A DNA stretch of 64,000 nucleotides from a virus. Both the position numbers and the translations under genes were made by a program. This document shows, one piece after another, positions 366 through 61,587 of the stretch. The DNA is taken from the IMG/VR virus record IMGVR_UViG_3300017991_000049, positions 64,001 to 128,000 of that record, one strand, 5' to 3'. The notes under the pieces were generated by a model. It had not been told where the DNA came from, did not search any database, and saw only the letters and a list, made by a program, of their open reading frames with translations. The first letter of the stretch is position 1; every line of letters starts with the position of its first letter.

Positions 366-1865
366 TTATGCCGATACGATGTGCACATTGCGGAGTGCGA
401 TGAACGCCGCCATGGTCTTGTCGTCAACGGTGTCTCCCTGGATCAGCACGTTAGAGACAGCTGTGGAGTCTGGCAGCGCCCGCGCGAGCGCGAACTGCTT
501 CGGCTGTACGCCGATCGGCAGCCCGTTTATGTACGCGACGGCCGCGCGCTTGAACTCGTCTTCGTCTACCTCGGCGGTCACGTTGATCCGCACGGTGACC
601 AAGGCTGGCTTCACAGCTTTGATCAGCACATCGAGGCCAGGTTGACGGACTGCCGGCTTATCGACTGCAGTCTGAATCGTATCGACGTCAGGCATGACAA
701 GCACGGTCACGATGAAGGCCTTCTTGTCGCCGACACTGAGGCCGAGCGTCTCGATCTCCTCTTTGAACGTGATTGTGGCTTCCTGGTAAGCGCTGTACAG
801 CCCTTCGTCTACCGTCTGGACGTCCGGCACAGCGCCTGCGGTATTCATGCTGCGGACATCGTCCAGGATCGTGCAGCCGTCGGCGGTGTGTGGCAGTCCA
901 GGCGCACGGATGTCACGGACCAGATAGAAACCAGGCGCGTCGTCGCGCGCCAGCGTGACTTCCCAGGTAGCCTCCGTTGGCGTCTTGGACAGCAACGTGG
1001 CGTTCTTGGTGATGCCGCGGCTCTTCGGGAAAGCTCGCGTGCGCACGTAGACGTCCAGCTTGCCGCCGCCAGACACGGTACCACCGCGCCGGTCTCGTAG
1101 CATTTCAGGATCACTCGCACCGATTACGGCCACATCGAGCACGTTGAATGTCAGGCTTTTGATTAGCGCCTTGACGCTCTCAGGACTGCCGAAGCCAGGC
1201 ATCGCGGCGCCGGTCTGCATCTGCTGCACTAGCTCCTCGTTCGACTGCGCTACGTTGCCGCCAGCGAAGTCTTCCGTGGCGTACGCCAGCAGAACACCCG
1301 GCGGGCTCGGTACTATGGTGAGCTTGTCGAACTGCGCCAGTACGGCGTTCTCGTGGATCTCGGCGGCCATGACAGGTACTTGCACGGCGAAGTTGCCGTT
1401 GTCCAGCTCCTCCGAGCGCACATCGTATGTGCCGAGGCTGCTAGTATCAGGCGCTTTCACGCTGACCGGCCGTGTGGCGTAGAACAGTTGCCCGTTGGCG
1501 CGGAACTTCGTGCTCGTGCCAAAGTTGATGCCACTGGCTCTGTCCATTACGACGGTGACGCTACCGGCCGCCTTGGTGGACACACGCCGGGTGATGCGAT
1601 AGTTGGACGCCAACGCGTCGACAGCAGTCGGAACTGCTGCGTCGGGCTCTTGGGCCAGCTCCAGCGCCGACATAGACTTGCGCAGCCGTTCGATCGCCTC
1701 CATGCTTGCGCCCTGCAAGATGGCGTGCAGTTCTGTCACCAAGTCACCGAGGACACCCCTGCGGGCATTCAAGTCCGGACACTGCTCTTCGACCATCTGG
1801 GCGATGATGGCGTAAGCCGCATCGACGCGGTCGTCGTCAATCTCATTCAGTTCGGGCCAGTACAT
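366..1865 (-). CDS. Hypothetical virion structural protein (tail or baseplate-like, 499 aa)
   Basis: Long ORF with non-artifactual composition at the distal end of the structural module. Any baseplate-J resemblance is subjective only. Confidence 0.55.
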   Translation of the reverse strand: MYWPELNEIDDDRVDAAYAIIAQMVEEQCPDLNARRGVLGDLVTELHAILQGASMEAIERLRKSMSALELAQEPDAAVPTAVDALASNYRITRRVSTKAAGSVTVVMDRASGINFGTSTKFRANGQLFYATRPVSVKAPDTSSLGTYDVRSEELDNGNFAVQVPVMAAEIHENAVLAQFDKLTIVPSPPGVLLAYATEDFAGGNVAQSNEELVQQMQTGAAMPGFGSPESVKALIKSLTFNVLDVAVIGASDPEMLRDRRGGTVSGGGKLDVYVRTRAFPKSRGITKNATLLSKTPTEATWEVTLARDDAPGFYLVRDIRAPGLPHTADGCTILDDVRSMNTAGAVPDVQTVDEGLYSAYQEATITFKEEIETLGLSVGDKKAFIVTVLVMPDVDTIQTAVDKPAVRQPGLDVLIKAVKPALVTVRINVTAEVDEDEFKRAAVAYINGLPIGVQPKQFALARALPDSTAVSNVLIQGDTVDDKTMAAFIALRNVHIVSA

Positions 1866-2300: not shown

Positions 2301-2731
2301 GTCGTCAACATCTCCTGGATGAATGCCTCCACAGAGCCCTTGTGTACGCCGTTGGCGGCGTCTCCGTGCGCCTTGCGCCGCCCCGACAGCAACATGCACG
2401 CGCGTGTGGGTGTGCGGTGACGCTCGCGGAACGAGCGTTCCATCATGGCCATGTAGCCGATCTCGATACTGGTACCCGCTGCGATCCTACTCTTGTTCTC
2501 ACCCGCGCCTGTGAACTCGTCGATGTAATCCTGGTTCACGTCCGTACGGTCGAACGGGTCGCCCATATCGGGGATGTCCGTAGGGTCGAACGTCCAGCCG
2601 GGTGTCTTCCCACTTGGGATCATCCACGGCCGCTGCACGGCGTTACCTTCCAGGTACGATCCGATCGACAATGAGTCGGCCGATACGTCGTCCATCAGGC
2701 TCGTAAATTGTGCGTCAACGGCAAGGGTCAT
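2297..2731 (-). CDS. Hypothetical protein (144 aa)
   Basis: Complete ORF, acidic and hydrophilic. Its stop overlaps the next gene's start (ATGA). Confidence 0.5.
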   Translation of the reverse strand: MTLAVDAQFTSLMDDVSADSLSIGSYLEGNAVQRPWMIPSGKTPGWTFDPTDIPDMGDPFDRTDVNQDYIDEFTGAGENKSRIAAGTSIEIGYMAMMERSFRERHRTPTRACMLLSGRRKAHGDAANGVHKGSVEAFIQEMLTT

Positions 2732-3471
2732 TAGAGCATCTCCAGGGTATCGCGCTTATCGAGCTTCTGCTGGATTTGCGCCATCCTGTGGCTGACAGCA
2801 GCCGGGCTGATCTTCAGCTGCGCCGCCACCTGGCTGGGCTTGGTTTGCGGGTGCCCGTGCATGCCCAGCACCCGCTCCATGATGAACTGGTTGGTCTCGT
2901 CTAGGTCATCATAAACTAGTTCGAGCCATACGTCAGGGCGTTCTTGCAGCGAACGTACCCGAGGGTCGTAACCTCCGCTGCCTTCGTCGCCCGGCCGGGT
3001 GATCGTGCTCTCGGCCAGGGGCCTGCCGCTACCACGGATATACTGCAGCCGCTTGAGCGACAGCCCGGTGAAGTCCGACAGCTCCTGGTCCGACGGCGGC
3101 CGGCCCAGCTTGTCTTCCAGCTCGTTGACAGCACGCTCGGAGTGCATCTGGTCCAGCGCGACCTGCTCTGGCACGCGGATGATCTGGCGATGACTGGACG
3201 CCGTACGCCGCAAGCGCTGCAGCCGGGACATCATGTGCGACTTGAGCGGACCACGGGCTGGATCGTACGAGTGCAGGGCTTCCGCGGCCATACGCTTAGC
3301 CTGGGACCTGATCGTCACACTCTTGGCCGACGGGCCGGCGTACGCGCGTACGGCCATGCTGATAACCGGATCGAGCGCCTTGAGCATCTGACCTGTGTTT
3401 GCGCGGGACGGATCGGTAGCCCAAGCCTTGTATGGCTCCTGAAAATCGGGCTCTAGCAGGTTTTTCGACAT
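2731..3471 (-). CDS. Sigma-70 family RNA polymerase sigma factor (~246 aa)
   Basis: C-terminal region 4.2-like HTH (ERVLGMHGHPQTKPSQVAAQLKISPAAVSHRMAQIQQKL) and a region 3/4 stretch (GLSLKRLQYIRGSG). Start re-picked at the ATG at 3469-3471, which is preceded by GGAGGT. The ORF-track N-terminus overlaps the upstream gene and looks artifactual. Confidence 0.75.
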   Translation of the reverse strand: MSKNLLEPDFQEPYKAWATDPSRANTGQMLKALDPVISMAVRAYAGPSAKSVTIRSQAKRMAAEALHSYDPARGPLKSHMMSRLQRLRRTASSHRQIIRVPEQVALDQMHSERAVNELEDKLGRPPSDQELSDFTGLSLKRLQYIRGSGRPLAESTITRPGDEGSGGYDPRVRSLQERPDVWLELVYDDLDETNQFIMERVLGMHGHPQTKPSQVAAQLKISPAAVSHRMAQIQQKLDKRDTLEML

Positions 3472-3479
3472 GATACCTC

Positions 3480-23618: not shown

Positions 23619-25121
23619 TTACCGAACAAAATTGGACCGTACGACCAAATCCTGCATGAATTTCGCATCAGGATCGGCCGCATGTGCTTGTAGGAAACCG
23701 AGCTGGTAGAGCGCGTAATGCTTTGCCAACTCGTCTACATTACCGGCTACAGCCACCTTGGTCATAGGCCGGCGACTGCCCAGCGGCGTCGGGTGCCGCA
23801 GCGTCGAAAGCTGCAAGCGCTGGACTACGCTCGGGCGGTCTAGCGACCATTCGGCCGCGTGTTTCAGCACCCAATGGCGCACCCGGCGTGGCGTAGGCCC
23901 GCCCGGGACGTATGGGCTGTTTCTGAGCTCCTCTTCCAGCCGCGGGTCCGTTGCCAGACGATTGTAAACGCCTGGCAGCCGGTCGGCAACTCGATCCGCG
24001 GCGGTCTTGATGCCGATGTCGTTGCCCGTCAGAAGCACTAGGAAGCTGTCTAACGGCAGCAGGCACTTCTCGTCCGACAGCGCGGTGACGACGTGCGCAA
24101 GCTTGAACGGGCCTGTGCGGACGTCTGGGGCGTCTGTACGGAGCGGCTGGACATCCGGCATGAATGACCGGTCCAGCGGCGACGGAACCTCCTCGGCGGA
24201 GATCTCGTCCTCCAGGCTGATCAGATCGCTGGCGACCTTGAGCTGGCCCACGATCTTGGGATCGGCCCAGGGGCCGTCCGCCATCAGCCACAGCGGCGGC
24301 GTCACGCCTAGCTTCTCGGCCAGATAGCCGGAGCTGCGCGTCTCGCCATACGTATCCGCAGCTGCTTTCAGCATGCCTTCGTAGTCGGCAGCGGCCTTGG
24401 CCATGCCGATCGTGTAGGCGATGCGGTCCGCCGGGCGGAAAACGTTCGAGATATCGAAGTACGACGGATTCGGGTTGAACACGCCCAGCGTCGTGCCATC
24501 GTCGAAGGTCTTGGCCAGGTTGTCCTTACAGCCGCCGTACTTGCACATCTCAGGACCGCAGTATTCTGCGCGGCTCTGCGCCTTGTTTCCGCAGCCAGAG
24601 CATTCGTCGTACGCCACACGGCATGCCATCGAAACAGGGATGTCTTCGCCGCGCGCGAGCTTCTCCATCTCTTCGTCGGCGACCAGGCCGCCGTTGCGGT
24701 CAGCAGCTTCTTTCGTACTGTTGAGCGCCACGATCAGCTCGATACGGCGCATGTCGCCGTTGTAGGCCGACGCTTTGACGATGCCACGACCCTTCTTCGG
24801 ATCCTTGTTGTCGTGGTTGCGATACCAGCGCGCGTACTTCTTGAAGGTCGGATGACACTTCTGGCACTCGGCCTCCTTGAAGCCGTCGCCGTTACGGTTG
24901 AAGCCGTAATACTCGTGCGCGCCCACGGCGATCAAATGCACCGGAACTTCACCGGGATTCAGCCGCATCGACGCCACCTTGTCGATGAATTGCACCGAAG
25001 CGCGTTTCACGAAGGCGTCCATATCGGACCCACGCAGCCCGTTACGGGCCAGCTTGATCCGCTGCGCGATCGGCTCGTGGAAGTTTTGGGAGCCGGGCGT
25101 AATGAGTTTGACGTGCGCCAT
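23619..25121 (-). CDS. Virion morphogenesis protein (500 aa; portal or prohead-protease candidate) with a Cys cluster
   Basis: Position immediately upstream of the scaffold-like and capsid genes. Cys cluster CSGCGNKAQSRAEYCGPEMCKYGGC. No family recognisable by eye. Confidence 0.5.
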   Translation of the reverse strand: MAHVKLITPGSQNFHEPIAQRIKLARNGLRGSDMDAFVKRASVQFIDKVASMRLNPGEVPVHLIAVGAHEYYGFNRNGDGFKEAECQKCHPTFKKYARWYRNHDNKDPKKGRGIVKASAYNGDMRRIELIVALNSTKEAADRNGGLVADEEMEKLARGEDIPVSMACRVAYDECSGCGNKAQSRAEYCGPEMCKYGGCKDNLAKTFDDGTTLGVFNPNPSYFDISNVFRPADRIAYTIGMAKAAADYEGMLKAAADTYGETRSSGYLAEKLGVTPPLWLMADGPWADPKIVGQLKVASDLISLEDEISAEEVPSPLDRSFMPDVQPLRTDAPDVRTGPFKLAHVVTALSDEKCLLPLDSFLVLLTGNDIGIKTAADRVADRLPGVYNRLATDPRLEEELRNSPYVPGGPTPRRVRHWVLKHAAEWSLDRPSVVQRLQLSTLRHPTPLGSRRPMTKVAVAGNVDELAKHYALYQLGFLQAHAADPDAKFMQDLVVRSNFVR

Positions 25122-29295: not shown

Positions 29296-31704
29296 CTACA
29301 TTTCGCCTTCGCCGAGATCCATATCCACACCTTCGTCTGGGTACGGCTCGACAGTCTTTTGCTTGAGCTCCAGAGTCACGTCGCCCAGGCCCTCGAAGGC
29401 GTTTCGCATGGCGTCGGTCAAGTCCGGAAGGTTATTGCCACCGTACCGGTCCTCGAACTTGTCGTGGTGCCAGTACATGTTGAACAGCAGGCGGCCAAGG
29501 CTGTCGAGACCCTTCATCAGGTTCGACAGGTGCTTGTCGATTAGGGTTTCGTTCTGTGTGCCCTTGAGCAAGTTGGACAGCAAGGACGTGTCCAAGACCT
29601 CTTTCTGGCCGGTCTGGGACGCTTCCATGATCTGCTGCGCCATCATCGGCTCAGGCGGCGGAGACATCAACGGATGCTCTCGCGTCGCGCGCAGGCCATC
29701 GACTGGGACCTCTTGGATGTCCTCGCCGTACGTTGTCGGAACGCCGGAGCCCATGAAATGGTCAGAGCCCATCTCCGGTTCCGGGAACGTCGGAGCCGTC
29801 GGCGGGTAGCCGAGCGCCTCGTACGGCTGCGCCAGCTTGATTCGGCACTTGATACCGCGCTTGAGCGACGCTTCCTTGAGCAGTTCGCGTGCAGCCTTCT
29901 CGCGCAGTCCGTAATCGCGGACCAAGCTGACCATAGCGCCTACTGGCGACATGCGCTTACCGTCGACTACGGCCTCGGTGCCGTTGTTGAAGATCCGCAG
30001 TTCCTCGGAGGTCTTGTAGATTCCGAGCTGCAGGTCGACGTGGCTACCAGGACGCAGCGCAGGCGGATCGCTGGAGTCTTCCATGTCGCAGCACGTTACC
30101 GGGACTGGGCAGCAGCAATCGCCTTCGCAGCCGCAATCGGGCTTCGGGGGATCTTTGATCTTCACGGCTTTGGCGCCGTCCGGCACGTACAAGCAGCACA
30201 GCCGGGAGACGAACCGCGGACCCTTGATCCGATTCAGCATCACTGAGTCTGCCCCCTCGCAATCACTGTCGTACTCATACCGCCGTTCGGCAACAGGGGG
30301 CAGATGGTCAGGACGTCGGCTGCCGTAGCGATTACGCCAGCGGACCTCGTAACATTTTTCGTCGCCCTCGGCCGGCAGAGTATTCTTGACCTTGAAGACG
30401 CTGGTGCCCTGCCCGTTCGGCGCCAGGAGGACGTACATTGCGCCCTCTTCAAGGCTCGTGGTCTCCGGCAGTCCATCAAAGTAGTCGCGGAAGGACTCGC
30501 CGTTGTAGTCGTTAGAGACAAAGATTGCTCCGGGGTGTGTTTCCGTCCATGCCTTCTCGCCATCACCAATCCGGATCAACACGCCGTTGGGCTTTGTGCC
30601 GCGCGCATTGAACGGGGAGTGAATGTAGAGACACTTCTCGAATGAGTCTGGCTTGCACAGCACTTCGTAGATGCCCGTGTCGTCCGGGTTCATCAGTTCG
30701 AGCGGCTCCTGCACGCGGTATGCGTGGGAGACTTCGTCATCGGTACGCTCGTCAGCGATGAATACGCCGTCGCGCTTGAGCTCTTGGGCCTGTTTCTCCG
30801 TGAGGCCATTGCTGCAATTGCGCGCACGCACATCAGTGCTATCATCGTAGCGCCAGATCTTGACTTTTCCTGCAAGCTGCTCTCGAGCCTGTGCAGCTGC
30901 AGACTTCTCGGGGAATAGACTCCCGGTCTTGTAGGTCTTCCCCTTCTTTTTCTTGTGCTTCTGGCCGGTTGGGATGGCCGACTCGGTGGTCTTGGCGCAG
31001 TCGATTGCTTCCTTGACTACGTCCGCGCCGTACATGTCCGTAAGCGGCCGGACCAGCTGTGGATAGGCGTCCAGCAGCGTGATGAACTGCATGGCGGCGT
31101 CGGCGTTCTCCTTGACCAGACCAGGCACCTGGACCTGCAGCTCGACGTGCCGGCCAAGCGCGTGCATCAAGCCGGGCAGCGCGGGTGCAAGCCAGTCCGG
31201 GTAGGCTGACGCGTACTTGTTCCGCGGAGAGTCACGGAAGACGTCCATGTTCGGACGATCGACTCCGAGCGCAGCCAGGTTCGGCTTGGCTTCCTCGCCG
31301 ATGACGTTGGGCTTCCGGTTCAACACGTAGTTGATCCAGTTCTCCTTCATCGGGACGAACGTGTCCGAGTCCTTGAGGTAGAGTAGCTCGTGGCCTTTCA
31401 GCTCACCGTTCAGGAAGAACACGGGAGCGTACAACAGCTGCGACCCGACACGGAAACCGAAGATGCCGACGGCGCGGTCGTTGTCCTCGTTCTTTTCCAG
31501 CAACTGGAAGCCCAGTTCGTGGTCGAGAAGTTGGGGTGCGCGGTCCTTGAGGTACGCGTGGGCCAGGTTTGAAAGGGCCTGCTCGAACGGAACAGATTGG
31601 CCATCACCCCCCAAATCAGCACGCTTGATGTGCTGTGTACGGGCGTGGGACTGACAAACCTGTCTCCAATGTGCAGCGGGCCTCGAGAGCGGCTTGGTGC
31701 TCAT
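29296..31704 (-). CDS. Large virion morphogenesis protein (802 aa; portal candidate)
   Basis: First gene of the structural block after the RNA polymerase genes. Large size and acidic C-terminus (DMDLGEGEM). Specific family not recognisable by eye. Confidence 0.5.
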   Translation of the reverse strand: MSTKPLSRPAAHWRQVCQSHARTQHIKRADLGGDGQSVPFEQALSNLAHAYLKDRAPQLLDHELGFQLLEKNEDNDRAVGIFGFRVGSQLLYAPVFFLNGELKGHELLYLKDSDTFVPMKENWINYVLNRKPNVIGEEAKPNLAALGVDRPNMDVFRDSPRNKYASAYPDWLAPALPGLMHALGRHVELQVQVPGLVKENADAAMQFITLLDAYPQLVRPLTDMYGADVVKEAIDCAKTTESAIPTGQKHKKKKGKTYKTGSLFPEKSAAAQAREQLAGKVKIWRYDDSTDVRARNCSNGLTEKQAQELKRDGVFIADERTDDEVSHAYRVQEPLELMNPDDTGIYEVLCKPDSFEKCLYIHSPFNARGTKPNGVLIRIGDGEKAWTETHPGAIFVSNDYNGESFRDYFDGLPETTSLEEGAMYVLLAPNGQGTSVFKVKNTLPAEGDEKCYEVRWRNRYGSRRPDHLPPVAERRYEYDSDCEGADSVMLNRIKGPRFVSRLCCLYVPDGAKAVKIKDPPKPDCGCEGDCCCPVPVTCCDMEDSSDPPALRPGSHVDLQLGIYKTSEELRIFNNGTEAVVDGKRMSPVGAMVSLVRDYGLREKAARELLKEASLKRGIKCRIKLAQPYEALGYPPTAPTFPEPEMGSDHFMGSGVPTTYGEDIQEVPVDGLRATREHPLMSPPPEPMMAQQIMEASQTGQKEVLDTSLLSNLLKGTQNETLIDKHLSNLMKGLDSLGRLLFNMYWHHDKFEDRYGGNNLPDLTDAMRNAFEGLGDVTLELKQKTVEPYPDEGVDMDLGEGEM

Positions 31705-31793: not shown

Positions 31794-33683
31794 CTAGGTT
31801 TTAGGCGGCCTCAACACGTCCTTCGGCCAATTCCGACCAAACTCAGTGCCCTCGGCCATAGCCGGGACAAAGCTCGTACCCTTGGTGTCGGACACAGCGC
31901 CACGATGCGTCGCGCTGAGTAGGCTTTTCTTCTGATTCGAACCCAGGAATCTGGTCATCCAGTCAGGATCATGACCGATCGAGGCCATGGCCCTGACCAT
32001 GTGCGGGCGAAACGCCGGCTCGGTGTCGTGCGCCTCGACCGACTTCACGCCGAATTCTTCGAATACTGGCAGCATTGATGGCGTTATCCGGGTGCCGATC
32101 GTGTAGTGGAGCACCGGACGCTCCAGATACTTGCCTACAGCGTACTGCGGCTCAAACTGGGCCGAACCGTCGCGTGGCTGGTATCCGCGCTCAAATTGCT
32201 GGTACGGGATGACATCGCCTGGAACGTGGCCGTCATCCTCGTCCACCATCTCTACGTGATCGATCAGTCCTCGGGCGAGCAGCTCGATGTTCCGGCGGTT
32301 GGCGTACATGCCTCCGGCTCTGTACGCGTCTGCGAAGGTGTCGACGAAGTATCTTCGTCCTTCGCCGATTCCCTTATGCTTGACAATCTCTGAAGGATTC
32401 GGGATGCCGTCGCTGATGACGTCACCGGCCTCGACTGTATCTCCTCTCTCAACTTGGAGATCAAACCCCGGGAGCACGAAGTGTCTCTGTCCGCTAATGG
32501 TAACGTACCGACCACCTGCCGGCGCATCTTCGACGGCCGTCACCTTCCCGTCGAGCTGGGCATGGGCTGCGCCTCCTTTGAAGGTTTTTGGCACTTGCAC
32601 GAGCTGGTTGACGTGTTGGAAGCCGGTGACGGACTGCGCTTCTCCTTTGACTCCACCTGAATGCTTTGAGGATAGCTGACCTTGCGTAAGCTTCTCGCTG
32701 AGTGCTTGTGCCGCCGCGACGCCAACCATGTCGCCAACCGGTGATAGGCCACCACGCTCACGTATACCAACATCACGAGAATACACCCCAGAGGCAGGCC
32801 CTCCCACCATTGGACTACGGACAAGAATACGCTTAACACCTTGATTCTCCAGGTCCTTCAAGATCTTCGGGGTAAGGACGGTGTTCCGCTCATAATCACC
32901 AGCTGGGGACGCCAACAGTGCTCCTTCACTGTCAACGTCGGTCACGTCGACTGGCAGGCCCCGTATCGGCGCTCCTTCGCCCGGTTCCTCATCGTCATCA
33001 GAAGCCGTGACGAGTAGTCGGTGTGCCAGCTGGTTAAGTTGCTTCGAGAAGAAGCCCGCATCTTGGGTCGCAAATTTCACGTCGATCAGACCCTTGCGCG
33101 CGCCATACGTAGCGGCCCAGAACTCCGCAGGCCGCAGACCCTCGGCGAAGCTTGTCTGTACTGGAAACGGAATGACGTTCTCGTGGTGATCGACATACAG
33201 CATGTCGCCGCCGATCAGGCGCTTTAGTCCGGTGATACCCTTGCCACCGCCTACAAAGCCGGACACCACCTGGTCAGCCAGCGGGTTCTTGGCCTTCTTG
33301 GCGTCGGCAAGAATCTCCTTCTGTAGCCGTTCGTGCTCGACCGCAGTCGCTTCGACGACCTTCTCTTCCTTCTTCTCCTCACTCCACTTATCGTTGGACA
33401 GGATGTCCCGGATGCGCCTGTTCAGACGCTGGCGAGACATGTGGACAGAAGGCGTTGGGCGCATATGACGCAGGCCAAAAGAACTCCCACCGGTTGTGAA
33501 CGCAACGTCTCGGCCCACGTCAGACAGGCGTTTGGAAACTTCACGGTACTTCTCCGGATGTTCCTCGGCGACTTGGCGAAGCAGCGCGCTGATGCCCTTC
33601 TTGTCCAAGACACGCGTGTAGTCACGCATATCCGACGGTAGCGCCTCGTTCACCATGAGTTGTCCGATGGTCGTACGAATCAC
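31794..33683 (-). CDS. DNA-directed RNA polymerase beta-prime subunit, C-terminal segment (629 aa)
   Basis: ATYGARKGLIDVKFATQDAGFFSKQLNQLAHRLLV matches the beta-prime/RPB1 region around the trigger loop (compare [29 protein letters not shown]). Confidence 0.8.
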   Translation of the reverse strand: MIRTTIGQLMVNEALPSDMRDYTRVLDKKGISALLRQVAEEHPEKYREVSKRLSDVGRDVAFTTGGSSFGLRHMRPTPSVHMSRQRLNRRIRDILSNDKWSEEKKEEKVVEATAVEHERLQKEILADAKKAKNPLADQVVSGFVGGGKGITGLKRLIGGDMLYVDHHENVIPFPVQTSFAEGLRPAEFWAATYGARKGLIDVKFATQDAGFFSKQLNQLAHRLLVTASDDDEEPGEGAPIRGLPVDVTDVDSEGALLASPAGDYERNTVLTPKILKDLENQGVKRILVRSPMVGGPASGVYSRDVGIRERGGLSPVGDMVGVAAAQALSEKLTQGQLSSKHSGGVKGEAQSVTGFQHVNQLVQVPKTFKGGAAHAQLDGKVTAVEDAPAGGRYVTISGQRHFVLPGFDLQVERGDTVEAGDVISDGIPNPSEIVKHKGIGEGRRYFVDTFADAYRAGGMYANRRNIELLARGLIDHVEMVDEDDGHVPGDVIPYQQFERGYQPRDGSAQFEPQYAVGKYLERPVLHYTIGTRITPSMLPVFEEFGVKSVEAHDTEPAFRPHMVRAMASIGHDPDWMTRFLGSNQKKSLLSATHRGAVSDTKGTSFVPAMAEGTEFGRNWPKDVLRPPKT

Positions 33684-33943
33684 GGGTTATCCCCTGGCTT
33701 CCATAACGTGCCTGGAGGCGTCGGCATATCCAGCATATTGCTCATGACCGTCTCGTCGAGACCGACGCCACGCAGCGCACGCTGCATGGCCTCATCACCG
33801 TCACCGCGATGGACGATGAAATAGTTGTCCGGCCCGACCTGCATCGCTACGCATAGCGCCTGTCCGTCAGCTGATCGCAGCACCAATCTGGTAGCCTCGA
33901 TCTGCTCGGGGCTGCCGAGTTTGTTATGCAGCTCGACGATCAT
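33680..33943 (-). CDS. Small hypothetical protein between the RNA polymerase genes (87 aa)
   Basis: Complete ORF with ATGA-type coupling to neighbours. Confidence 0.4.
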   Translation of the reverse strand: MIVELHNKLGSPEQIEATRLVLRSADGQALCVAMQVGPDNYFIVHRGDGDEAMQRALRGVGLDETVMSNMLDMPTPPGTLWKPGDNP

Positions 33944-33944
33944 G

Positions 33945-34637
33945 CTACGCTCCGGTCAGGCCACGAGACAGCGCGGAAAGTGCGTCGATCCGGCGTGCGC
34001 TGTCGTCGAAATCGGGGGCCTCTTCGGGCGCGGCGGGCGCACGGAACAGCGACATAACGCCGTCCGCATCGGCAGCGGGCTTCTCTGTACCGCCAGCGGG
34101 TTCGATCGGGCTGACTGGCGCTTGGCCGCCGATCGCGGGCAGTTGTCCCGCCTGCTCGGACTCACCGCCCTGGCCGATCGGTGCGCTTTGTGGCGGCTGC
34201 CCTTGGGAGAGCATTGCCACAGTACCGTCGTCCAGAATATCCGGAGGCATCTCGATCCCGGTGTGCTTCATCATGTGGGTCAGGAGCTTGCGAACGCGGC
34301 TCAGCTCTTGGTAGATGAAGGTTGGGTCGATCTTGGGCTTTCCGCCTGCAGCGGGGGCGCCTGCCGCGGGCGCTGCCGGAGGAGCTGCAGCTGCAGCCAT
34401 TGGGTCCATTGGAGGCGCCCCACCTGGCGGCATTCCTGCCATCGCCGGATCCATCGGCGGTGCGCCGCCCATTGCTGCGGGGTCCATTGGCGGCGCGCCG
34501 CCTGGCGGCATGCCTCCGCCCATCGCTGCGGCCGGGTCCGTGGCGCCCTGCGGCACAAAGGCTTGCTTTTCTGCCTCACCGCGAAGCCTCCAGTCGGCTA
34601 CGTCGAAGAGCGTCTCGTTCATTTCGTGTCTGGTCAT
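33945..34637 (-). CDS. Met/Pro/Gly-repeat protein between the RNA polymerase genes (230 aa)
   Basis: Three GGAPPMDP repeats and a poly-Ala/Pro tract. Same compositional theme as 22184..23515. Confidence 0.5.
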   Translation of the reverse strand: MTRHEMNETLFDVADWRLRGEAEKQAFVPQGATDPAAAMGGGMPPGGAPPMDPAAMGGAPPMDPAMAGMPPGGAPPMDPMAAAAAPPAAPAAGAPAAGGKPKIDPTFIYQELSRVRKLLTHMMKHTGIEMPPDILDDGTVAMLSQGQPPQSAPIGQGGESEQAGQLPAIGGQAPVSPIEPAGGTEKPAADADGVMSLFRAPAAPEEAPDFDDSARRIDALSALSRGLTGA

Positions 34638-34717
34638 GGCAAAGCGAACTCCAGTGAGGGTTCATGATATCTTACCAGCTTATCGGGGACGCGGTGTTTA
34701 TACAATCCGACTGTCCG

Positions 34718-37700
34718 CTATTCTAGGATCTCCACGCGCTGGCCGGAGCCTATTTCGCCGCGATGGTAAGCGGCAATTGCATCTTTCTTGGTCTTGAACA
34801 CGCGTGCTGGCGTGGGGTCGGCCTTCGCTGTAGCCGCCCACAGCCCGCCGACGTATTCCTTGCTCGGCGTGTAATGGACATCGAAATCGCCGACAGCCAG
34901 CAGGTTCTTGGACGGCATCAGCTTCTCTTTGGCCTCGTCCACGGCGTCGTCACTGGACGGCACGTGGAACTGCATGGCGTCACCATCGAAGTCAGCGCCG
35001 AAGCCGCCAACGGTCAGCGGCGGAATCTCCAGCGTGGATGACGATGTGAGCTGCGGCCAGAACGCCATCACGCCGAACCTGTGCAACACAGGTGCGCGGT
35101 TGATGACCACCGGCCGGGTCTGCATTTCGCTCTGTAGCTCACGCAGCGCCAGCGGGGTGCGCTCCTTAGCCTCCTCCATGGCCTTGATCTTGCCCATGCC
35201 ACGCCGTACGAGGCGGCGCACGATGAACGGCTGGTACAACGTCCACGCCTCGTCGATCGGCAGCCCGACCTGGTCCATGTCGAGGTTCGGGTTAGGCGTG
35301 ATCGTAGCGCGTCCAACGAGGTCGACGGTGCTGCCGAGCAGCTTCCGTTGTACGGTACCGAACTTCGGGCTACTGCCAAAGACATGCTTGAGGATGCCCT
35401 TGATGTCCTGCTCTTGGAACTCCGGCGAGATCGGGTTACCGAGGCCGGTCACGCCCTTGAACGCCTTGTACACGGCCAGGCGCTCGTCAGTGATGTCGTC
35501 GGTGAGCTTAGACAGGTCTTTCAGGTTCTTCGTGGCCTCGAAGACCTCTTTGTACAGGTAGTTTGCGTCGTTCACGAGCTGCGTGTTGGTATCGGCGAAC
35601 AGCGAGACCGGGCGGAACGTAGGCGGCAGCACGGGCACGCGGTCCATCATCCAGTCACCTGGGTGCTGGCCGTTCTCCTTCGCTGACTTGAGATACTGCA
35701 AGCGTCGGATCGCCTTGTCGCGGTAGGTCTTCTTACCGCTGTTCATCTCTGCACGTGCGCGCTCGATCTCCTTGTTGAGGTTGATATCCTCAAGCGCAGA
35801 CTTGATGCCCGCAGGTCCAGTTAGCTGCTCACGCCCAGGCAAGCCTTCGCGGCCAGCCAAGACCGATTCGAACTGCTTCTGCGTCAGCCCTAGGATGCGC
35901 CGGATAGGTTCTTCCATAACCGGGTTTGGCAGCGGCTCGTGCAGCTTGATATGGCTCCAACGGTTACCACCGTGGCCGCCGGTAAGCGACTCGTCGAACA
36001 GGCCGCCCTTGATCGGCGTCAGCTTGCTGATACGCCAGTCGACTGTCTGTGCGTTCTGGATTTCGCGATCGCCGGTGAGATCAACAGCGTCCGGACCGGT
36101 CATGGCCATGACTTGCAGCTGCGTGCCGGTCTTGACTGGGTTGATGCCTGCGCCCTTCAACTGCGCAACGAACTTCTCGAACATGAACGGGACCTTCGGC
36201 TCGGGCGGCGTATAGCCGGACATGAGCATGCGCCAGTAGTCCTCGTTCCGCTGGCCTCGGACGATGCTGGCGTCACGGATGGTCTTGTACGCACCGTGTG
36301 ACAGCAATGCATTCAGTTCGAGCATACCGACGCGCTTCGAGCCTGATGGTCCGCCCTTGGCAGGCTGACCCTCAGCGGTGTAGCCGCCACCGGCCGCGCG
36401 GCCTTGCAGCTTGGCCTCGGCTGTGTGGTGCAGCTTCATGATGAAGCGGTTGCCGGCATCGATGTCCTTGAGCGTGCGCCCGGTCTTCGGGTCGGTCAGG
36501 TCTTCGGTGTCCGGCAACCCGTGCTTGCGCAGTTCGCGTTCGGCGAACTCGCGGAGGTCTTTCAGGCTGCCGAAGTCTTGCAGCTTGTACGGCTTACCAG
36601 TCAGCGCGGCAATCTTACCTAGCTGGGCCTCGATGATCTGCGAGGGATTGCCCCGACCCATGATGCCGCCTGGGTTGAGTAGCACTTCGTATGGCACTTT
36701 GTCGGGACCGTGCGGCATGTCTTCGTCCGGGACGATGGCGGCCACAACGCCCTTATCGCCGTAACGTCCGGCGAACTTGTCACCAACTTGCGTGGGATGT
36801 AGGGACTTAACGACAACGGAGATACCCTTCTTTCCTTTGTGAACGTCGGTTACGGTTCCTGGCGAGTGGTGATCCCACATGATCGATGCGTTCGACCACG
36901 ACGCCTTGCGACGACCAAGCCGCGGACCCGTCTTACGCTCTTTCACGGCCAAAATCAACGGCTCGTCCATGTTCACCGTCTCGCCGACGCGCACTACGCC
37001 GTCGTCATCGTACTTCTCCAGCAGCTTCCGGTCGTATTCGCCCGGATAGATCGACATGAATGTGTTCTTGGACGCCTTGGTGCCTTCGGCAATATCAAGC
37101 TCGTGCTGGTACATGTGTTCCGAGCTAGCGCGCTTAGCGAACGACTCCGAGATTACGATGGCGTCTTCGAAGTTGTAGCCTTTGTACGGGAGGTACGCGA
37201 CGCGTGCATTTTTGCCAAGGGCAGTTGTCCCGCCTTGATCAGTGAAGTTTGAGGAGGCAAGAAGCTGGCCGGAGCGAACTTTGTCACCAGGTCGGACCAC
37301 AGGGCGATTGTGGACGAAGGTCTTTCTGTTGTAGGGGTGGTTGTCATAGAGCTCCTCGTAATGAACCTTCCGGTCCTTACCCCTGATCTTGATAGCGCTC
37401 GGCGTGACTTCCAGCACCGTACCGTCGACCTGGCTCTTCACCGCGCCCATGTCACTGCCGAGCAAGTCCTCGAACGATGTGCCTTCCATGCCCGGGACAC
37501 CAGACTGTACCAATGGCGCCTCTGCGTCCGCCATCGGCAGCGCTTGCGAAAGCATGCGGCTGCCCATAGAAACGCGCTGTGGGAACGCAGCGCCTTTCAA
37601 CGGGACCATGGATGCCAACGGGCCGAACGCCTCGGTCATGTCGGCTAGCTGGTAGTCGACGTCCTTGGCGGCGACGTACTTGAGCTTGCCTTTGTGCTGT

Positions 37701-39088
37701 GCGCGGACGTGCGGCTGCCCCGATTCAAGCTCTCCTGGAAAAGCGACGACAGCATCTGCAACATCCTGTGGTGACTTCCAGACGGTCTTGCCTGTCTTCG
37801 GATGAAGGAATCGCGAGTATATGCGTCCGTCAGGGCCTTTAAGCGTTCGGATTGATAGGCGGGAATCGATACCGATCTTGCCCGACTCTGGGGTGTGGAC
37901 AGGATCAATGAATCCAAGGTGGCTAGGTTGAACATTACGCGCCTCGTCGGGAACCGAATCGGACGACGGGATGCCGCCCTCGCCCATACGCGTTACGCGC
38001 ACGCGCTGGTCGTACAGTTCCGCTGGGTTGATTTCTTCTAGTGGATTGCCAAGCCCGGTCTCGAGGATAGCGCCTCGCACCATCTTTTGGAAGATGTTGG
38101 GCTGCAATCTGCTGAGATTACCGGGCAGCGTGGCCTTCCACAGCGCCTTACGCGCTTCGATCGCAGCCTTGTTGATGCGCTCGGCGAATAGATCCTCCGG
38201 CCCGACAGTGCGCTGGAACGCCATGGCGTCGCGGTCGTCGGCATCTTCCTCGCCCTTGTGTACGCGCAGTAGCTTCTGTGTCGACGACAGGATGACCTCG
38301 GGATCAACCTTAGCATAAGGTTTGCCGAGCGTACGCTTAGTGACCTCTGGGTCCAGTTCCATCTCGTCGAAAGCTGCACGGATAGCCTCGAACATCTCCT
38401 GGTCGTCGCCAGCAGTGCCTCTGCGGACCAGTTTCTTGTACAGCTTCTTGATCGTGCCTGGGTCGCTCTTCTGCGCATTCGCAACGAACAACTCGTTACC
38501 CCAGGCATCGCGTATCTGTCTGTCCGTGGCACCCAATGCTTTAAGCACCGGCATCAACGGCATGCGAGCTTGTCCGAACTGAATTCGAAAGATACCTGTC
38601 TCTGGGTCCAGGAAGTAGCGGTGACCAAATCCCCGTGCAACATTGACATGGGACTCTAACTCGCCGGACTCCTTGATACGAGTGAAGATCCCAGGTCGTA
38701 ACCGCATCTGGTGAGACAAGCTGTACTCGTTGCCGTTGAGGATGAACGTACCACGGGGAGTCATGTGCGGAATGCTGGCCAAGGTGACCCGCTTCTCGTC
38801 CACGACTTGCTGGGCGTCATCGTTTGTGCGCAGCTGGTATGTACCGCGCAAACGGCGGCCGAGCGAGCGGCCCTCTAGGACAGCGCGCTTCTCATCGGCC
38901 TTTGTGTATGTTTCTGGTCCGTCGTAGCCAACATTAGACAGGCCCAGTATGTATTTCTGGTTGGAGACGGGCGCCTGGTTCTGCGCCGCCGTAAGCGCAT
39001 TCTGGTAGACAGCGGCACGCGTGGCATTCACGTCACCGAATGCGCGGGCCTCTGGTGGCCCGCCTTGCATATCCAGCAGAGGATTCAT
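34718..39088 (-). CDS. RNA polymerase fusion protein: beta-like subunit fused to the N-terminal catalytic part of beta-prime (1456 aa)
   Basis: Beta motifs RGTFILNGNEYSLSHQMRLRPGIFTR, NFEDAIVISE and GDKFAGRYGDKGVVAAIVPDEDMPHGPDKVPYEVLLNPGGIMGRGNPSQIIEAQLGK. Beta-prime active-site motif GGFGADFDGDAMQFHVP near the C-terminus. Confidence 0.85.
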   Translation of the reverse strand: MNPLLDMQGGPPEARAFGDVNATRAAVYQNALTAAQNQAPVSNQKYILGLSNVGYDGPETYTKADEKRAVLEGRSLGRRLRGTYQLRTNDDAQQVVDEKRVTLASIPHMTPRGTFILNGNEYSLSHQMRLRPGIFTRIKESGELESHVNVARGFGHRYFLDPETGIFRIQFGQARMPLMPVLKALGATDRQIRDAWGNELFVANAQKSDPGTIKKLYKKLVRRGTAGDDQEMFEAIRAAFDEMELDPEVTKRTLGKPYAKVDPEVILSSTQKLLRVHKGEEDADDRDAMAFQRTVGPEDLFAERINKAAIEARKALWKATLPGNLSRLQPNIFQKMVRGAILETGLGNPLEEINPAELYDQRVRVTRMGEGGIPSSDSVPDEARNVQPSHLGFIDPVHTPESGKIGIDSRLSIRTLKGPDGRIYSRFLHPKTGKTVWKSPQDVADAVVAFPGELESGQPHVRAQHKGKLKYVAAKDVDYQLADMTEAFGPLASMVPLKGAAFPQRVSMGSRMLSQALPMADAEAPLVQSGVPGMEGTSFEDLLGSDMGAVKSQVDGTVLEVTPSAIKIRGKDRKVHYEELYDNHPYNRKTFVHNRPVVRPGDKVRSGQLLASSNFTDQGGTTALGKNARVAYLPYKGYNFEDAIVISESFAKRASSEHMYQHELDIAEGTKASKNTFMSIYPGEYDRKLLEKYDDDGVVRVGETVNMDEPLILAVKERKTGPRLGRRKASWSNASIMWDHHSPGTVTDVHKGKKGISVVVKSLHPTQVGDKFAGRYGDKGVVAAIVPDEDMPHGPDKVPYEVLLNPGGIMGRGNPSQIIEAQLGKIAALTGKPYKLQDFGSLKDLREFAERELRKHGLPDTEDLTDPKTGRTLKDIDAGNRFIMKLHHTAEAKLQGRAAGGGYTAEGQPAKGGPSGSKRVGMLELNALLSHGAYKTIRDASIVRGQRNEDYWRMLMSGYTPPEPKVPFMFEKFVAQLKGAGINPVKTGTQLQVMAMTGPDAVDLTGDREIQNAQTVDWRISKLTPIKGGLFDESLTGGHGGNRWSHIKLHEPLPNPVMEEPIRRILGLTQKQFESVLAGREGLPGREQLTGPAGIKSALEDINLNKEIERARAEMNSGKKTYRDKAIRRLQYLKSAKENGQHPGDWMMDRVPVLPPTFRPVSLFADTNTQLVNDANYLYKEVFEATKNLKDLSKLTDDITDERLAVYKAFKGVTGLGNPISPEFQEQDIKGILKHVFGSSPKFGTVQRKLLGSTVDLVGRATITPNPNLDMDQVGLPIDEAWTLYQPFIVRRLVRRGMGKIKAMEEAKERTPLALRELQSEMQTRPVVINRAPVLHRFGVMAFWPQLTSSSTLEIPPLTVGGFGADFDGDAMQFHVPSSDDAVDEAKEKLMPSKNLLAVGDFDVHYTPSKEYVGGLWAATAKADPTPARVFKTKKDAIAAYHRGEIGSGQRVEILE

Positions 39089-49456: not shown

Positions 49457-49608
49457 TTCGATCCCGCTTACGTCAATTAGTCACAACGGGCCATTCCGAA
49501 ATGGAATGGCCGTAACTCCAAGGCTGACAATGGCTTCCTATTTAAGCGCAAACCTGCAGGCCTGCAAACACGCCGCGCTTACGTCAAATGTGAGGACCTC
49601 GCTGCGAG

Positions 49609-54319: not shown

Positions 54320-54527
54320 GCTCTGGCTCCAAACGAATAGCGGCAAGCGGCACATCCAGGATGACCGTACCGTCCTTCAATTCAAAATCTTGGTGCGTGC
54401 GCGCTTCCAGCGTCAGGCAGCCCATGTTGATAGGCTCGATGACTTCGTTAGCGCCAAACACCATGGTGGTCATGTCGCCATCCGGCATGACAGCACCTAC
54501 GTGACAGACGTAGTTGAAGGCGAATCG
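54303..54527 (-). CDS. Small hypothetical protein (~75 aa; internal start)
   Basis: MRFAFNYVCHVGAVMPDGD... fills the gap between the thymidylate kinase and the phosphatase. The longer ORF-track version would overlap the phosphatase gene. Confidence 0.3.
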   Translation of the reverse strand, partial: RFAFNYVCHVGAVMPDGDMTTMVFGANEVIEPINMGCLTLEARTHQDFELKDGTVILDVPLAAIRLEPEHADCV

Positions 54528-61584: not shown

Positions 61585-61587
61585 ACG

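Follow-up and report, generated by a model that had tools for sequence, protein, structure and literature searches.

Organization of the polymerase locus

The window, a stretch of 64,000 nucleotides (positions 64,001 to 128,000 of IMG/VR record IMGVR_UViG_3300017991_000049), contains a bacterial-type RNA polymerase core on two open reading frames, whose positions and lengths had been correctly given in a preliminary description (Table 1). We found that in the 1456-aa protein a complete beta subunit (residues 1 to ~990) runs straight into the N-terminal ~40% of beta-prime (residues ~991-1456), the latter spanning ~18-550 in E. coli numbering when aligned by MAFFT with E. coli rpoB and rpoC. Pfam matches above the gathering cut-offs were obtained for RNA_pol_Rpb2_3 (350-413), Rpb2_6 (572-912, 193 bits) and Rpb1_2 (1318-1388, 83 bits), together with Rpb1_1 (1102-1194) below its cut-off. 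In phmmer searches of the PDB, residues 95-1007 correspond to cyanobacterial beta 92-1079 and residues 1068-1453 to B. subtilis beta-prime 150-538. Only segments 225-265, 320-353, 379-419, 936-1047 and 1167-1195 of E. coli beta are missing, and the beta portion ends in GINPVKTG, the counterpart of GINIELED at the E. coli beta C-terminus.

Table 1. Features of the window and the basis on which each was assigned.
Feature	Position (nt)	Strand	Basis or remarks
Baseplate wedge protein (T4 gp6-like), homolog of Arash gp13	366..1865	-	phrog_6 E = 1.5e-8; tblastn
Sigma-70-family factor, 246 aa, sigma2 + sigma3 + sigma4	2731..3471	-	start internal to 311-aa ORF
500-aa protein, homolog of Arash gp222	23619..25121	-	tblastn 36% identity, E = 1e-33
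802-aa protein	29296..31704	-	directly downstream of beta-prime-C; tblastn; weak homolog of Arash gp218 and D69 0266
Beta-prime C-terminal gene (beta-prime-C), 629 aa, GTG start	31794..33683	-	Pfam Rpb1_5, TIGR02386, PDB alignment, MAFFT
C-terminal conserved region of beta-prime-C	31836-31964		
Trigger loop, ...LTQGQLSSKHSGG	32652-32717		residues 323-344 of 629-aa protein
Bridge helix, ATYGARKGLIDVKFATQDAGFFSKQL	33036-33113		residues 191-216 of 629-aa protein
87-aa protein, five beta-strands and one helix	33680..33943	-	always directly upstream of beta-prime-C
Met/Pro-repeat protein, 230 aa, Ala/Pro/Gly/Met-rich	33945..34637	-	companion gene, conserved position
Fusion gene, 1456 aa	34718..39088	-	Pfam, PDB phmmer, MAFFT, 245 homologs
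Beta-prime N-terminal portion of fusion	34721..36118	-	junction alignment, TIGR02386 162-533, motif census
Catalytic motif G-ADFDGD	34979-34999		fusion residues 1364-1370
Zn-ribbon deletion site, LTGGHGGNRW	35957-35986		
Beta portion of fusion	36119..39088	-	alignment to E. coli beta
End of beta portion, GINPVKTG	36125-36148		
Beta double-psi barrel motif, GDKFAGRYGDKGV	36746-36784		fusion residues 769-781
Rifampicin-pocket region	37973-38029		

The beta and beta-prime motifs quoted in the preliminary description, GDKFAGRYGDKGV and G-ADFDGD, are present, and mapping of the domain boundaries with HMMs indicated that the 1456-aa protein contains each double-psi beta-barrel in full, as read from the lysine motif GDK...KG in beta and from DFDGD in beta-prime. 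The beta-prime part retains the clamp-helix region and has lost the Zn-ribbon. The Asn of NADFDGD is Gly in the window phage and varies (G/N/A) across the family; judged by alignment and motif census, this variability and the loss of the Zn-ribbon are derived traits that the family holds in common.

The 629-aa protein begins at about E. coli beta-prime residue 569 and lacks SI3 (MAFFT), matches Pfam Rpb1_5 (73.6 bits) and aligns to C. difficile beta-prime 577-1099 in the PDB. Fusion residues 1090-1454 match positions 162-533 of the NCBIfam rpoC profile TIGR02386, and residues 2-498 of the 629-aa protein match positions 548-1065 of 1147; since these ranges adjoin, the end of the fusion and the 629-aa gene are contiguous pieces of one beta-prime. 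Both the Pfam and the TIGR02386 mapping agree with the beta-beta'(N) fusion and separate beta'(C) proposed earlier. One label changed: ATYGARKGLIDVKFATQDAGFFSKQL, previously taken for the trigger loop, aligns with the E. coli bridge helix, and the trigger loop, with its catalytic His kept, is a separate element of the same protein. Furthermore, the description of the enzyme as strongly minimised against ~2750 aa was overstated, as that comparator is E. coli and the shortfall is mostly absent E. coli lineage-specific insertions.

The 1035 nt that separate the fusion stop from the start of beta-prime-C (previously given as 1 kb) contain the two small genes already reported there, both conserved within the environmental subfamily. 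The 230-aa protein has, besides its GGAPPMDPxMM repeats, a helix at the N-terminus, a conserved one in the centre and a short basic one at the C-terminus; it has no match in Pfam, PHROG or NCBIfam, and its position is taken by an ORF of this type in 12/12 related loci examined. The TGA stop of the 87-aa gene overlaps the GTG start of beta-prime-C (GTGA), and its product is a candidate accessory subunit. A profile search found no homolog of either gene in Salmonella phage Arash (GenBank OQ632216) or Vibrio phage D69.

Conservation and spread of the layout

Two errors in assembly or sequencing, a frameshift or chimera joining rpoB to rpoC and a second one cutting rpoC, could in principle create such a layout, a caveat of the preliminary description for which we found nothing in favour. 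The identical 1456-aa protein occurs on 7 contigs of various sources (JGI and ENA assemblies; up to 226 kb), and start, junction and end are unchanged in more than 240 homologs of 46-84% identity. Beta and beta-prime-N are both covered in 222/245 fusion homologs, one split point is shared by each of the 243 homologs that extend to the end, and the best representatives of 50%-identity clusters finish there as well (150/150). Many homologs hold frame through in-frame insertions, some contain intein Pfam domains, and the joint of the beta C-terminus to the beta-prime N-terminus is clean and kept from the window phage to Arash, in which peptides cover 100% of the fusion protein (128 unique peptides). 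The identical contigs, the shared end point and the Arash peptides rule against a frameshift product, and we give an artefact virtually no credence.

A cellular origin was also considered, either a bacterium or symbiont with fused rpoBC in the style of Helicobacter or Wolbachia or a recent capture of host genes. One 54%-identical homolog is named 'MAG: Betaproteobacteria bacterium' in NCBI, and the top NCBIfam match is the Helicobacter-type beta/beta-prime model, but the match reaches 360 bits where that model's cut-off is 5372, and identity to E. coli beta is just 26.6% over 966 columns. Ribosomal-protein or nus genes are absent from the context, where the neighbours are nearly all ORFans besides a baseplate wedge protein and synteny with Arash, and 44 of the relatives come from viral contigs in IMG/VR that are ~180-220 kb long. 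This origin is highly improbable, and the baseplate wedge gene identifies the element as a contractile-tailed phage. The order fusion, small genes, beta-prime-C, 802-aa gene is conserved in the 44 IMG/VR loci, with the 802-aa gene found beside the polymerase at 31-39% identity (tblastn) in 36 of them.

Among cultured phages, Arash (fusion gp206, 1525 aa; beta-prime-C gp216, 606 aa) and the Vibrio phages D69, D148 and D181 have the same layout. They share the junction, the split point and the Zn-ribbon deletion with the window phage, at ~32% identity for the fusion and ~26-30% for beta-prime-C; the NADFDGD Asn is replaced in both, by Ala in these relatives and by Gly in the window phage. Their flap tip is longer, they lack the 230-aa and 87-aa genes, and in Arash nine unrelated genes separate the two polymerase genes. 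The layout is confirmed as real, and besides a few cultured phages hundreds of uncultured ones have it; the rarity first implied does not hold, the family being very common in metagenomes.

Comparison with known polymerases

As noted earlier, the enzyme is much nearer to cellular polymerases than to those of phiKZ-like phages: the fusion matches a solved bacterial beta at E = 2e-66 and cellular beta/beta-prime HMMs at E = 1e-57, against 1e-21 to 4e-4 for phiKZ-type PHROG families (best PHROG family, 2e-63). The cellular fusions of Helicobacter and Wolbachia (NCBIfam PRK09603, PRK14844) and the engineered E. coli tether likewise join the beta C-terminus to the beta-prime N-terminus, but the Helicobacter/Wolbachia type has a whole beta-prime (~2840-2890 model positions) and keeps alpha and omega, whereas in the window phage beta-prime is cut again past the catalytic barrel. 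In cyanobacteria and plastids, as here, beta-prime is cut after the Mg-binding barrel and before the bridge helix, the pieces being gamma (RpoC1) and beta-prime (RpoC2); the beta-prime part of the fusion aligns to cyanobacterial gamma residues ~172-550, and the phage split sits ~20-65 residues upstream of the gamma C-terminus. Unlike the window phage, cyanobacteria encode beta on a gene of its own and have alpha and omega.

Phage enzymes of the phiKZ/AR9 type are also two-barrel, with a split beta-prime and without alpha or omega, and one of their polymerase sets is packaged in the virion (PMC7598289, PMC7824862, PMC13282480). However, their beta is split too (4-5 subunits) and never fused to beta-prime, and their polymerase genes form two paralogous sets, with no homolog of sigma-70. 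The crAss-like gp66, YonO and P23-45 enzymes carry both barrels on one polypeptide, as the fusion does, and some such polymerases are delivered by the virion (PMC7481178, PMC10770324), but they have no recognisable similarity to cellular beta/beta-prime HMMs.

The multisubunit-RNAP-encoding Caudovirales (mReC; Weinheimer & Aylward 2020, PMC7481178), whose isolates include Rhizobium Kleczkowskaviridae and Cobetia phage Carin-5, resemble the window phage in being tailed and in having a compact polymerase with clear homology to cellular beta and beta-prime. Their beta (~900-1560 aa) and beta-prime (~900-1300 aa) are encoded apart, neither of them split, and the Zn-ribbon is present in Y65 and Carin-5. 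Summed beta-prime bit scores from the window are 367 for Arash, 277 for E. coli, 186 for Y65 and 108 for Carin-5. Because the mReC screen accepted only a beta-prime that had NADxDGD and was no shorter than 800 aa (PMC7481178), it would have missed the present type, with its 629-aa beta-prime-C and G/A active-site variants. The Arash paper (Yousefi et al. 2023, PMC10585845) labels the proteins 'beta' and 'beta-prime' and mentions neither fusion nor split, and our literature search found no paper describing a beta::beta-prime-N fusion with a separate beta-prime-C.

Proposed function in the phage

The sequence comparisons establish the architecture, its conservation and the retention of all universal catalytic elements. 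The best explanation, to which we assign a probability of about 0.8, is a large tailed phage with its own bacterial-type two-polypeptide core, working by the steps proposed below. The first polypeptide supplies the whole of beta and the N-terminal part of beta-prime, with a clamp that lacks the Zn-ribbon, the clamp helices and the Mg-binding DFDGD barrel. The second brings in the bridge helix, the trigger loop and the C-terminal region, and the two would do duty for the cellular four.

In keeping with the earlier description, alpha and omega are not recognisable: a Pfam scan of ~65 window ORFs (HMM-detectable domains; 64 kb of ~226 kb) found no domain of either, nor was either found in the annotated Arash genome. 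Because neither was found, the covalent beta/beta-prime tether would stand in for the alpha-dimer assembly platform and omega. A tethered beta::beta-prime works in E. coli and occurs naturally in Helicobacter and Wolbachia.

The sigma factor announced earlier is real, although placed 31 kb from the polymerase. It matches Sigma70_r3 (E = 2e-5) and has 64 homologs of similar length (~246 aa), of which most contain PF04539 and several are called sigma by their source; with its AF2 model (pLDDT 79), the top 50 Foldseek matches in the PDB are all sigma factors (best E = 2e-6). Profile comparison (E = 1.6e-23) marks it as an ortholog of the Arash sigma factor gp10. Longest contigs of 220266 and 43981 are common to the sigma, fusion and 87-aa homolog sets, and one of 198719 to the sigma and fusion sets. 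No shared promoter motif was found in a search for one.

Phage sigma factors could instead redirect the host polymerase, as T4 gp55 and SPO1 gp28 do, leaving the 87-aa or Met/Pro-repeat protein as possible specificity factor of the phage enzyme, like phiKZ gp68 or AR9 gp226. In line with this, the flap-tip helix, the dock of sigma region 4, seems shortened in the window phage's subfamily, the two small genes, and not the sigma gene, are tightly linked to the polymerase genes, and known phage multisubunit polymerases use non-sigma factors (PMC13282480). Yet the beta-prime clamp-helix region, the main sigma2 dock, is kept, the sigma ortholog accompanies the polymerase in Arash virion mass spectrometry (MS), Arash and D69 have the same polymerase without the small genes, and in Carin-5, of the mReC type, a sigma gene adjoins the polymerase genes. 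We consider host redirection unlikely and favour promoter recognition by the phage's own sigma-70-family factors, to which the gp10 ortholog would belong. The 87-aa and Met/Pro-repeat proteins would then be candidate lineage-specific accessory subunits. The apparently shortened flap tip, the Gly at the NADFDGD Asn, the lack of a shared promoter motif in our search and the chance that the phage sigma might redirect the host polymerase weigh against the best explanation.

Virion carriage is plausible by analogy with Arash, where gp206 had the highest spectral count (3516, against 1333 for the major capsid protein; coverage 100%), gp216 had 1210 and gp10 was covered to 100% (PMC10585845). The polymerase genes stand among structural genes in Arash and D69 as in the window, flanked in all three by homologs of MS-detected structural genes: gp218, related to the 802-aa protein, was seen in the Arash virion (PMC10585845), and gp222 is annotated as structural and MS-detected. 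The same enzyme could, however, be made after infection for middle and late transcription only, with the host polymerase reading early genes and the Arash signal being carry-over of a highly abundant intracellular protein. The virion preparation also held clearly non-structural enzymes (ribonucleotide reductases, RNA ligases), its authors themselves caution that abundant infection proteins could carry over (PMC10585845), and Arash has only one polymerase set, at a single matching place in the record, where phiKZ-type phages have separate virion and non-virion enzymes (PMC7598289, PMC13282480). Against carry-over stand the excess of gp206 over the capsid protein, the joint detection of gp10 and gp216 and the gene neighbourhood; we hold the non-virion scheme to be possible but doubtful. 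The packaging step is carried over from a relative with just ~33% identity, which also weighs against the best explanation.

Under the two-polypeptide phage polymerase that we favour, the core and its gp10-type sigma may travel in the virion and be delivered at infection, as Arash proteomics and the location among virion-protein genes suggest. Replacement of key residues of the pocket (Q513N, F514P, D516E, H526Q, S531T, L533M, I572D) would probably make the enzyme insensitive to rifampicin. Fused and re-split phage RNA polymerases are widespread and already in sequence deposits, though undescribed as an architecture, and such an enzyme would free phage transcription from the host RNA polymerase.

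Architecture and catalytic core of the polymerase

We found that the window encodes a multisubunit RNA polymerase (msRNAP) in which the whole of beta and the N-terminal part of beta-prime form one 1456-aa protein, while the remainder of beta-prime is a separate 629-aa protein. The two polymerase genes, the two small genes between them and this fused and split layout had all been proposed in the preliminary description, and they were borne out, the layout by Pfam, NCBIfam, solved structures and a MAFFT alignment. Pfam places Rpb2_3, Rpb2_6, Rpb1_1 and Rpb1_2 on the fusion and Rpb1_5 on the 629-aa protein. Furthermore, residues 1090-1454 of the fusion match positions 162-533 of the NCBIfam rpoC profile, and residues 2-498 of the 629-aa protein match positions 548-1065 of 1147; because the profile positions run on from one protein to the other, the two genes encode successive parts of a single beta-prime. 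Aligned with solved structures, residues 95-1007 of the fusion cover almost the whole of a cyanobacterial beta (92-1079 of 1104), and residues 1068-1453 correspond to beta-prime 150-538 and, just as well, to gamma 172-549 of cyanobacteria; the 629-aa protein aligns with C. difficile beta-prime 577-1099.

The MAFFT alignment took in the window protein, seven homologs, the proteins of Salmonella phage Arash and Vibrio phage D69, and E. coli RpoB and RpoC. The beta part, 26.6% identical to E. coli beta, reaches its natural C-terminus, where GINPVKTG (residues 981-988) corresponds to E. coli GINIELED. Beta-prime begins at most about 6 residues further on, at about E. coli residue 18, which rules out a reading of the HMM coordinates in which ~150 N-terminal beta-prime residues were swapped for a linker. 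The fusion stops at about E. coli beta-prime residue 550 and the sequence resumes in the 629-aa protein near residue 569, giving beta-prime pieces of 466 and 629 aa. Only the E. coli segments 225-265, 320-353, 379-419, 936-1047 and 1167-1195 are absent from the beta part, and these we take to be largely lineage-specific insertions. The enzyme had been called strongly minimised, which holds in a relative sense only: beta comes to ~990 aa and beta-prime to ~1095 aa, as against 1070-1100 aa in the shortest solved beta chains.

Features of the window, with positions in nucleotides
Feature	Position	Strand	Description
Baseplate wedge gene	366-1865		T4 gp6-like
Sigma-70-family gene	2731-3471		lies within ORF 2731-3666
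Beta-prime-C gene	31794-33683	-	629 aa, GTG start
Second small gene	33680-33943		87 aa; TGA stop overlaps the beta-prime-C start (GTGA)
First small gene	33945-34637		230 aa; ends one base before the 87-aa ATG
Fusion gene	34718-39088	-	1456 aa, beta and beta-prime-N
G-ADFDGD motif	34979-34999		beta-prime active site
1350-aa gene	45404-49456	-	LigD-type 3'-phosphoesterase (~893-1012) and ATP-dependent DNA ligase (1009-1349); N-terminal ~890 residues unannotated
Spacer upstream of the 1350-aa gene	49457-49608		coding strand holds TTGACGTAAGCG twice, in exact copies 111 nt apart
Nucleotide-metabolism cluster	50234-51607, 53663-54355, 54497-55180	-	2H-phosphoesterase ('Swiss Army Knife') and InPase fusion, thymidylate kinase, histidine phosphatase
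Sulfotransferase and glycosyltransferase run	59758-63056	-	two Sulfotransfer_4 and three glycosyltransferase-like genes

Both catalytic barrels are represented. The beta double-psi barrel (Rpb2_6, 193 bits against a cut-off of 23.4) carries the family-conserved GDKFAGRYGDKGV at residues 769-781 and keeps the GDK...KG motif with the two conserved lysines (E. coli K1065 and K1073). The beta-prime barrel (Rpb1_2, 83 bits against 25.3) has the Asp triad DFDGD, as ADFDGD at residues 1365-1370. The 629-aa protein contributes the bridge helix (residues 191-216), which the preliminary description had mislabelled as the trigger loop, the trigger loop itself (323-344) and the C-terminal conserved region; its trigger loop retains the His equivalent to H936 and has Ser for R933, and SI3 is missing. 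At the level of sequence, the two polypeptides hold a complete two-barrel catalytic core, which selection has kept throughout a very large phage family.

In the universal NADFDGD motif it is the Asn that touches the ribose of the incoming NTP. At the position of this invariant residue (N458 in E. coli) the window has Gly; of 120 close homologs, ~70 have Gly, 32 Asn and 9 Ala, and Arash and D69 have Ala. Because of this contact and this variation, sugar discrimination may differ in the polymerase family with the replaced Asn.

The main loss is the N-terminal Zn-ribbon of beta-prime with its four Cys, present in E. coli and in phages Y65 and Carin-5 and deleted in every aligned member of the family, that is in the window, the seven homologs, Arash and D69. 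In the window's subfamily, though not in Arash or D69, the flap-tip helix looks shortened. The rifampicin pocket carries the substitutions Q513N, F514P, D516E, H526Q, S531T, L533M and I572D, from which rifampicin insensitivity is predicted by analogy with known resistance positions. As already reported, alpha and omega are not recognisable: none of the ~65 ORFs of the 64-kb window matches RNA_pol_A_bac, RNA_pol_L or an Rpb6-type domain, and neither subunit is annotated anywhere in the Arash genome.

Spread of the arrangement and comparison with known polymerases

A sequencing frameshift merging rpoB and rpoC had been raised as a caveat. Such an artefact is ruled out by identical copies of the 1456-aa protein on 7 contigs from JGI and ENA data, four of them >200 kb, and by a constant junction and end across homologs: the stop lies at most 25 residues from the window's in all 243 members that reach the end, and 222 of the 245 collected members span both beta and beta-prime-N. 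The best 120 matches in a 5.8-billion-protein collection are all of the fusion type, at ~1450-1490 aa, or 1800-1920 aa for those with intein Pfam domains. When the beta-prime-N part was searched against 1.84 billion cluster representatives, the best 150 representatives of 50%-identity clusters (1442-3350 aa) all had the same C-terminal end point. The gene order of fusion, short spacer, beta-prime-C and a homolog of the window's 802-aa gene recurs at 44 IMG/VR loci on contigs up to 219 kb, the last gene having a tblastn match at 36 of them.

More than half of the 245 family members (proteins P0003-P0268 of our set) carry large in-frame insertions, with proteins of up to 3350 aa. These cluster at residue ~400, at 770-780 (the beta GDK barrel), at ~1240 and at ~1370 (the DFDGD site), corresponding to window nucleotides ~37890, ~36780, ~35370 and ~34980, and intein and LAGLIDADG Pfam domains occur in several of them; the copy in the window is without such an insertion. 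Beta-prime-C also reaches 1208-1453 aa in some relatives (loci L026:15898-19524, L028:18585-22694 and L046:16811-21172), through a C-terminal Ala/Gly/Pro/Gln-rich low-complexity extension followed by a coiled-coil-like region, both absent from the window's 629 aa.

Among 50,697 phage records, full-length single-piece tblastn matches were found only in Arash and in Vibrio phages D69, D148 and D181. The fusion, the split and the missing Zn-ribbon of the window recur in Arash (gp206, 1525 aa, with gp216, 606 aa) and in D69 (0261 with 0264). The Arash paper names its proteins beta and beta-prime, and the rearrangement goes unmentioned (Yousefi et al. 2023, PMC10585845).

Next we compared the family with known systems. 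In the multisubunit-RNAP-encoding Caudovirales (mReC) beta and beta-prime are separate and unsplit, the supplementary tables list only such pairs, and the screen called for beta and beta-prime of at least 800 aa each, with NADxDGD in beta-prime (Weinheimer & Aylward 2020, PMC7481178). The window has a fused beta, a split beta-prime and the motif GADFDGD, and its family fails that screen because beta-prime is split below 800 aa and the Asn is G, N or A; we reject mReC membership, since the tables list separate pairs only and the criteria leave out a fused or split layout. Two cultured phages of mReC type, Rhizobium phage Y65 (locus L053, 7980-11363) and Cobetia phage Carin-5 (locus L054, PV155638, 3131-9956), have unfused polymerases, the latter in a cluster of sigma, beta-prime and beta with the active-site motif NLDYDGD. 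By bit score only, both are farther from the window than E. coli is, the summed beta-prime scores being 367 for Arash, 277 for E. coli, 186 for Y65 and 108 for Carin-5.

The phiKZ/AR9-type enzymes, with beta in two or three polypeptides, beta-prime in two and no sigma homolog, have only the split beta-prime in common with the window, which differs in its unbroken, fused beta and in having a sigma-70-family factor. The Helicobacter/Wolbachia type joins full-length beta and full-length beta-prime in one polypeptide, a fusion like the window's; the latter, however, stops at ~550 of E. coli beta-prime and scores 360 bits against a PRK09603 cut-off of 5372. In cyanobacteria and plastids, gamma and beta-prime are split after the catalytic barrel and beta is separate, whereas the window's beta is not, and its split falls in the same inter-domain region ~20-65 aa upstream. 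We found no description of a phage enzyme made of a beta::beta-prime-N fusion plus beta-prime-C in the open-access literature, an absence that is not proof. The preliminary finding is real and its reading was essentially right: this is a new architectural variant of phage msRNAP, already in databases and in cultured phages.

Sigma factor, candidate accessory genes and virion context

The claim that the element carries its own sigma factor also held. The ORF gives a weak Sigma70_r3 match (24.9 bits, just below the 25.3 cut-off), and as its 64 homologs are ~246 aa long, most with PF04539 and several named sigma by their source, we place the true start at nt 3471. The AF2 model (pLDDT 79) has helical blocks at 8-95, 102-147 and 181-243, and its top 50 Foldseek PDB matches are all sigma-70-family proteins, over ~240-260 columns (full length); the modelled protein thus has predicted sigma2, sigma3 and sigma4 helical domains. 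Furthermore, an HMM of the window's sigma family matches Arash gp10 (E = 1.6e-23).

Initiation by the phage polymerase would be directed by this factor, the main alternative being that phage sigma factors act on host RNAP instead of the phage enzyme. Homologs of the sigma, fusion and 87-aa genes have the longest-contig values 220266 and 43981 in common, and sigma and fusion also 198719, which points to co-occurrence of the three genes in the same genomes. Known phage msRNAPs have been described as lacking sigma homologs (2026 review, PMC13282480). The sigma gene of Carin-5 adjoins its polymerase genes, so that the pairing of phage msRNAP and sigma is not unique to the window's family. K-mer enrichment in 22 intergenic regions gave no shared promoter motif above chance, and neither did a sigma-70 consensus scan, with 1 site against 3.1 expected. 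The repeated TTGACGTAAGCG had no further exact copies elsewhere in the window.

By ORF inspection at 12 related loci, both small genes between the polymerase genes are conserved in position and type, although BLAST barely picks them up. The first encodes, in relatives, an Ala/Pro/Gly/Met-rich protein of 200-300 aa. This Met/Pro-repeat protein consists of an N-terminal helix (NPELL..LA...EKSAFVP), GGAPPMDPxMM repeats in variable number, a central helix and a basic C-terminal helix, the N-terminal and central helices being conserved. The second, directly upstream of beta-prime-C, encodes 75-90 aa in relatives; the model of the window's 87-aa protein (pLDDT 74) has five strands and a helix, for which no fold match was found. 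HMM searches gave no counterpart of either protein in Arash or the D69 locus, and we regard the two as candidate lineage-specific accessory factors.

The T4 gp6-like baseplate wedge protein indicates a contractile-tailed phage. Almost all window genes are on the minus strand, GC is uniform (58-64%), no tRNAs were found in the window and terminators were at chance level. With about 50 of the ~65 ORFs matching nothing in Pfam or PHROG, it was not possible to locate portal, capsid and terminase in the window. The run of Sulfotransfer_4 and glycosyltransferase-like genes may be a glycan or DNA/protein modification module.

In our model core and sigma would, less certainly than its other steps, be packaged in the virion for early transcription. 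The main alternative is a polymerase that is intracellular only and no virion component, in line with a warning from the Arash authors that proteins abundant during infection may end up in the virion preparation. Their mass spectrometry (MS) ranked gp206 first in abundance, with 3516 spectra, 128 unique peptides and 100% coverage, and also detected gp216 (1210 spectra) and sigma factor gp10 at 100% coverage (PMC10585845). The window's baseplate wedge, 802-aa and 500-aa proteins have counterparts in Arash gp13, gp218 and gp222, each detected by MS and classed as 'structural', so that the polymerase genes sit among virion-protein genes, as in Arash and D69.

Proposed mode of action and implications

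In the model that we propose, covalent tethering of beta to beta-prime would substitute for the alpha platform, phage transcription would be independent of host RNAP and the polymerase would be insensitive to rifampicin. A more far-reaching reading, which we consider unlikely, is that of a large and overlooked lineage of ~180-230 kb phages whose virions would deliver a ready-made two-polypeptide holoenzyme, sigma-70-dependent and free of alpha and omega. In this reading the tether would take the place of the alpha scaffold, sugar discrimination would be altered by the variable Asn, and the 87-aa and Met/Pro-repeat proteins would be new subunits, with the Met/Pro-repeat protein serving in trans as a disordered repeat tail.

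Members of the family are common: at 50% identity they form at least 150 clusters, and their contigs come from many metagenomes. The fusion gene is a useful marker for the phage lineage. As the sole systematic survey of cellular-like phage RNAPs would miss the family by design, phage RNAP diversity and deep RNAP phylogenies are incomplete without it. In-frame insertions at catalytic motifs are unusually frequent in the fusion gene, and several contain intein domains; the gene is therefore a possible resource for intein biology. Arash grows on a standard host (S. Typhimurium ATCC 14028), so that independence from rifampicin, delivery by the virion, dependence on sigma and the effect of the replaced Asn can all be tested directly. 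Collectively, a Helicobacter-like fusion with a split near the cyanobacterial site is a third way to cut the universal beta/beta-prime core, and with its Zn-ribbon lost and alpha and omega not found, this core is a naturally minimal system in which the roles of the alpha platform and of omega can be studied.
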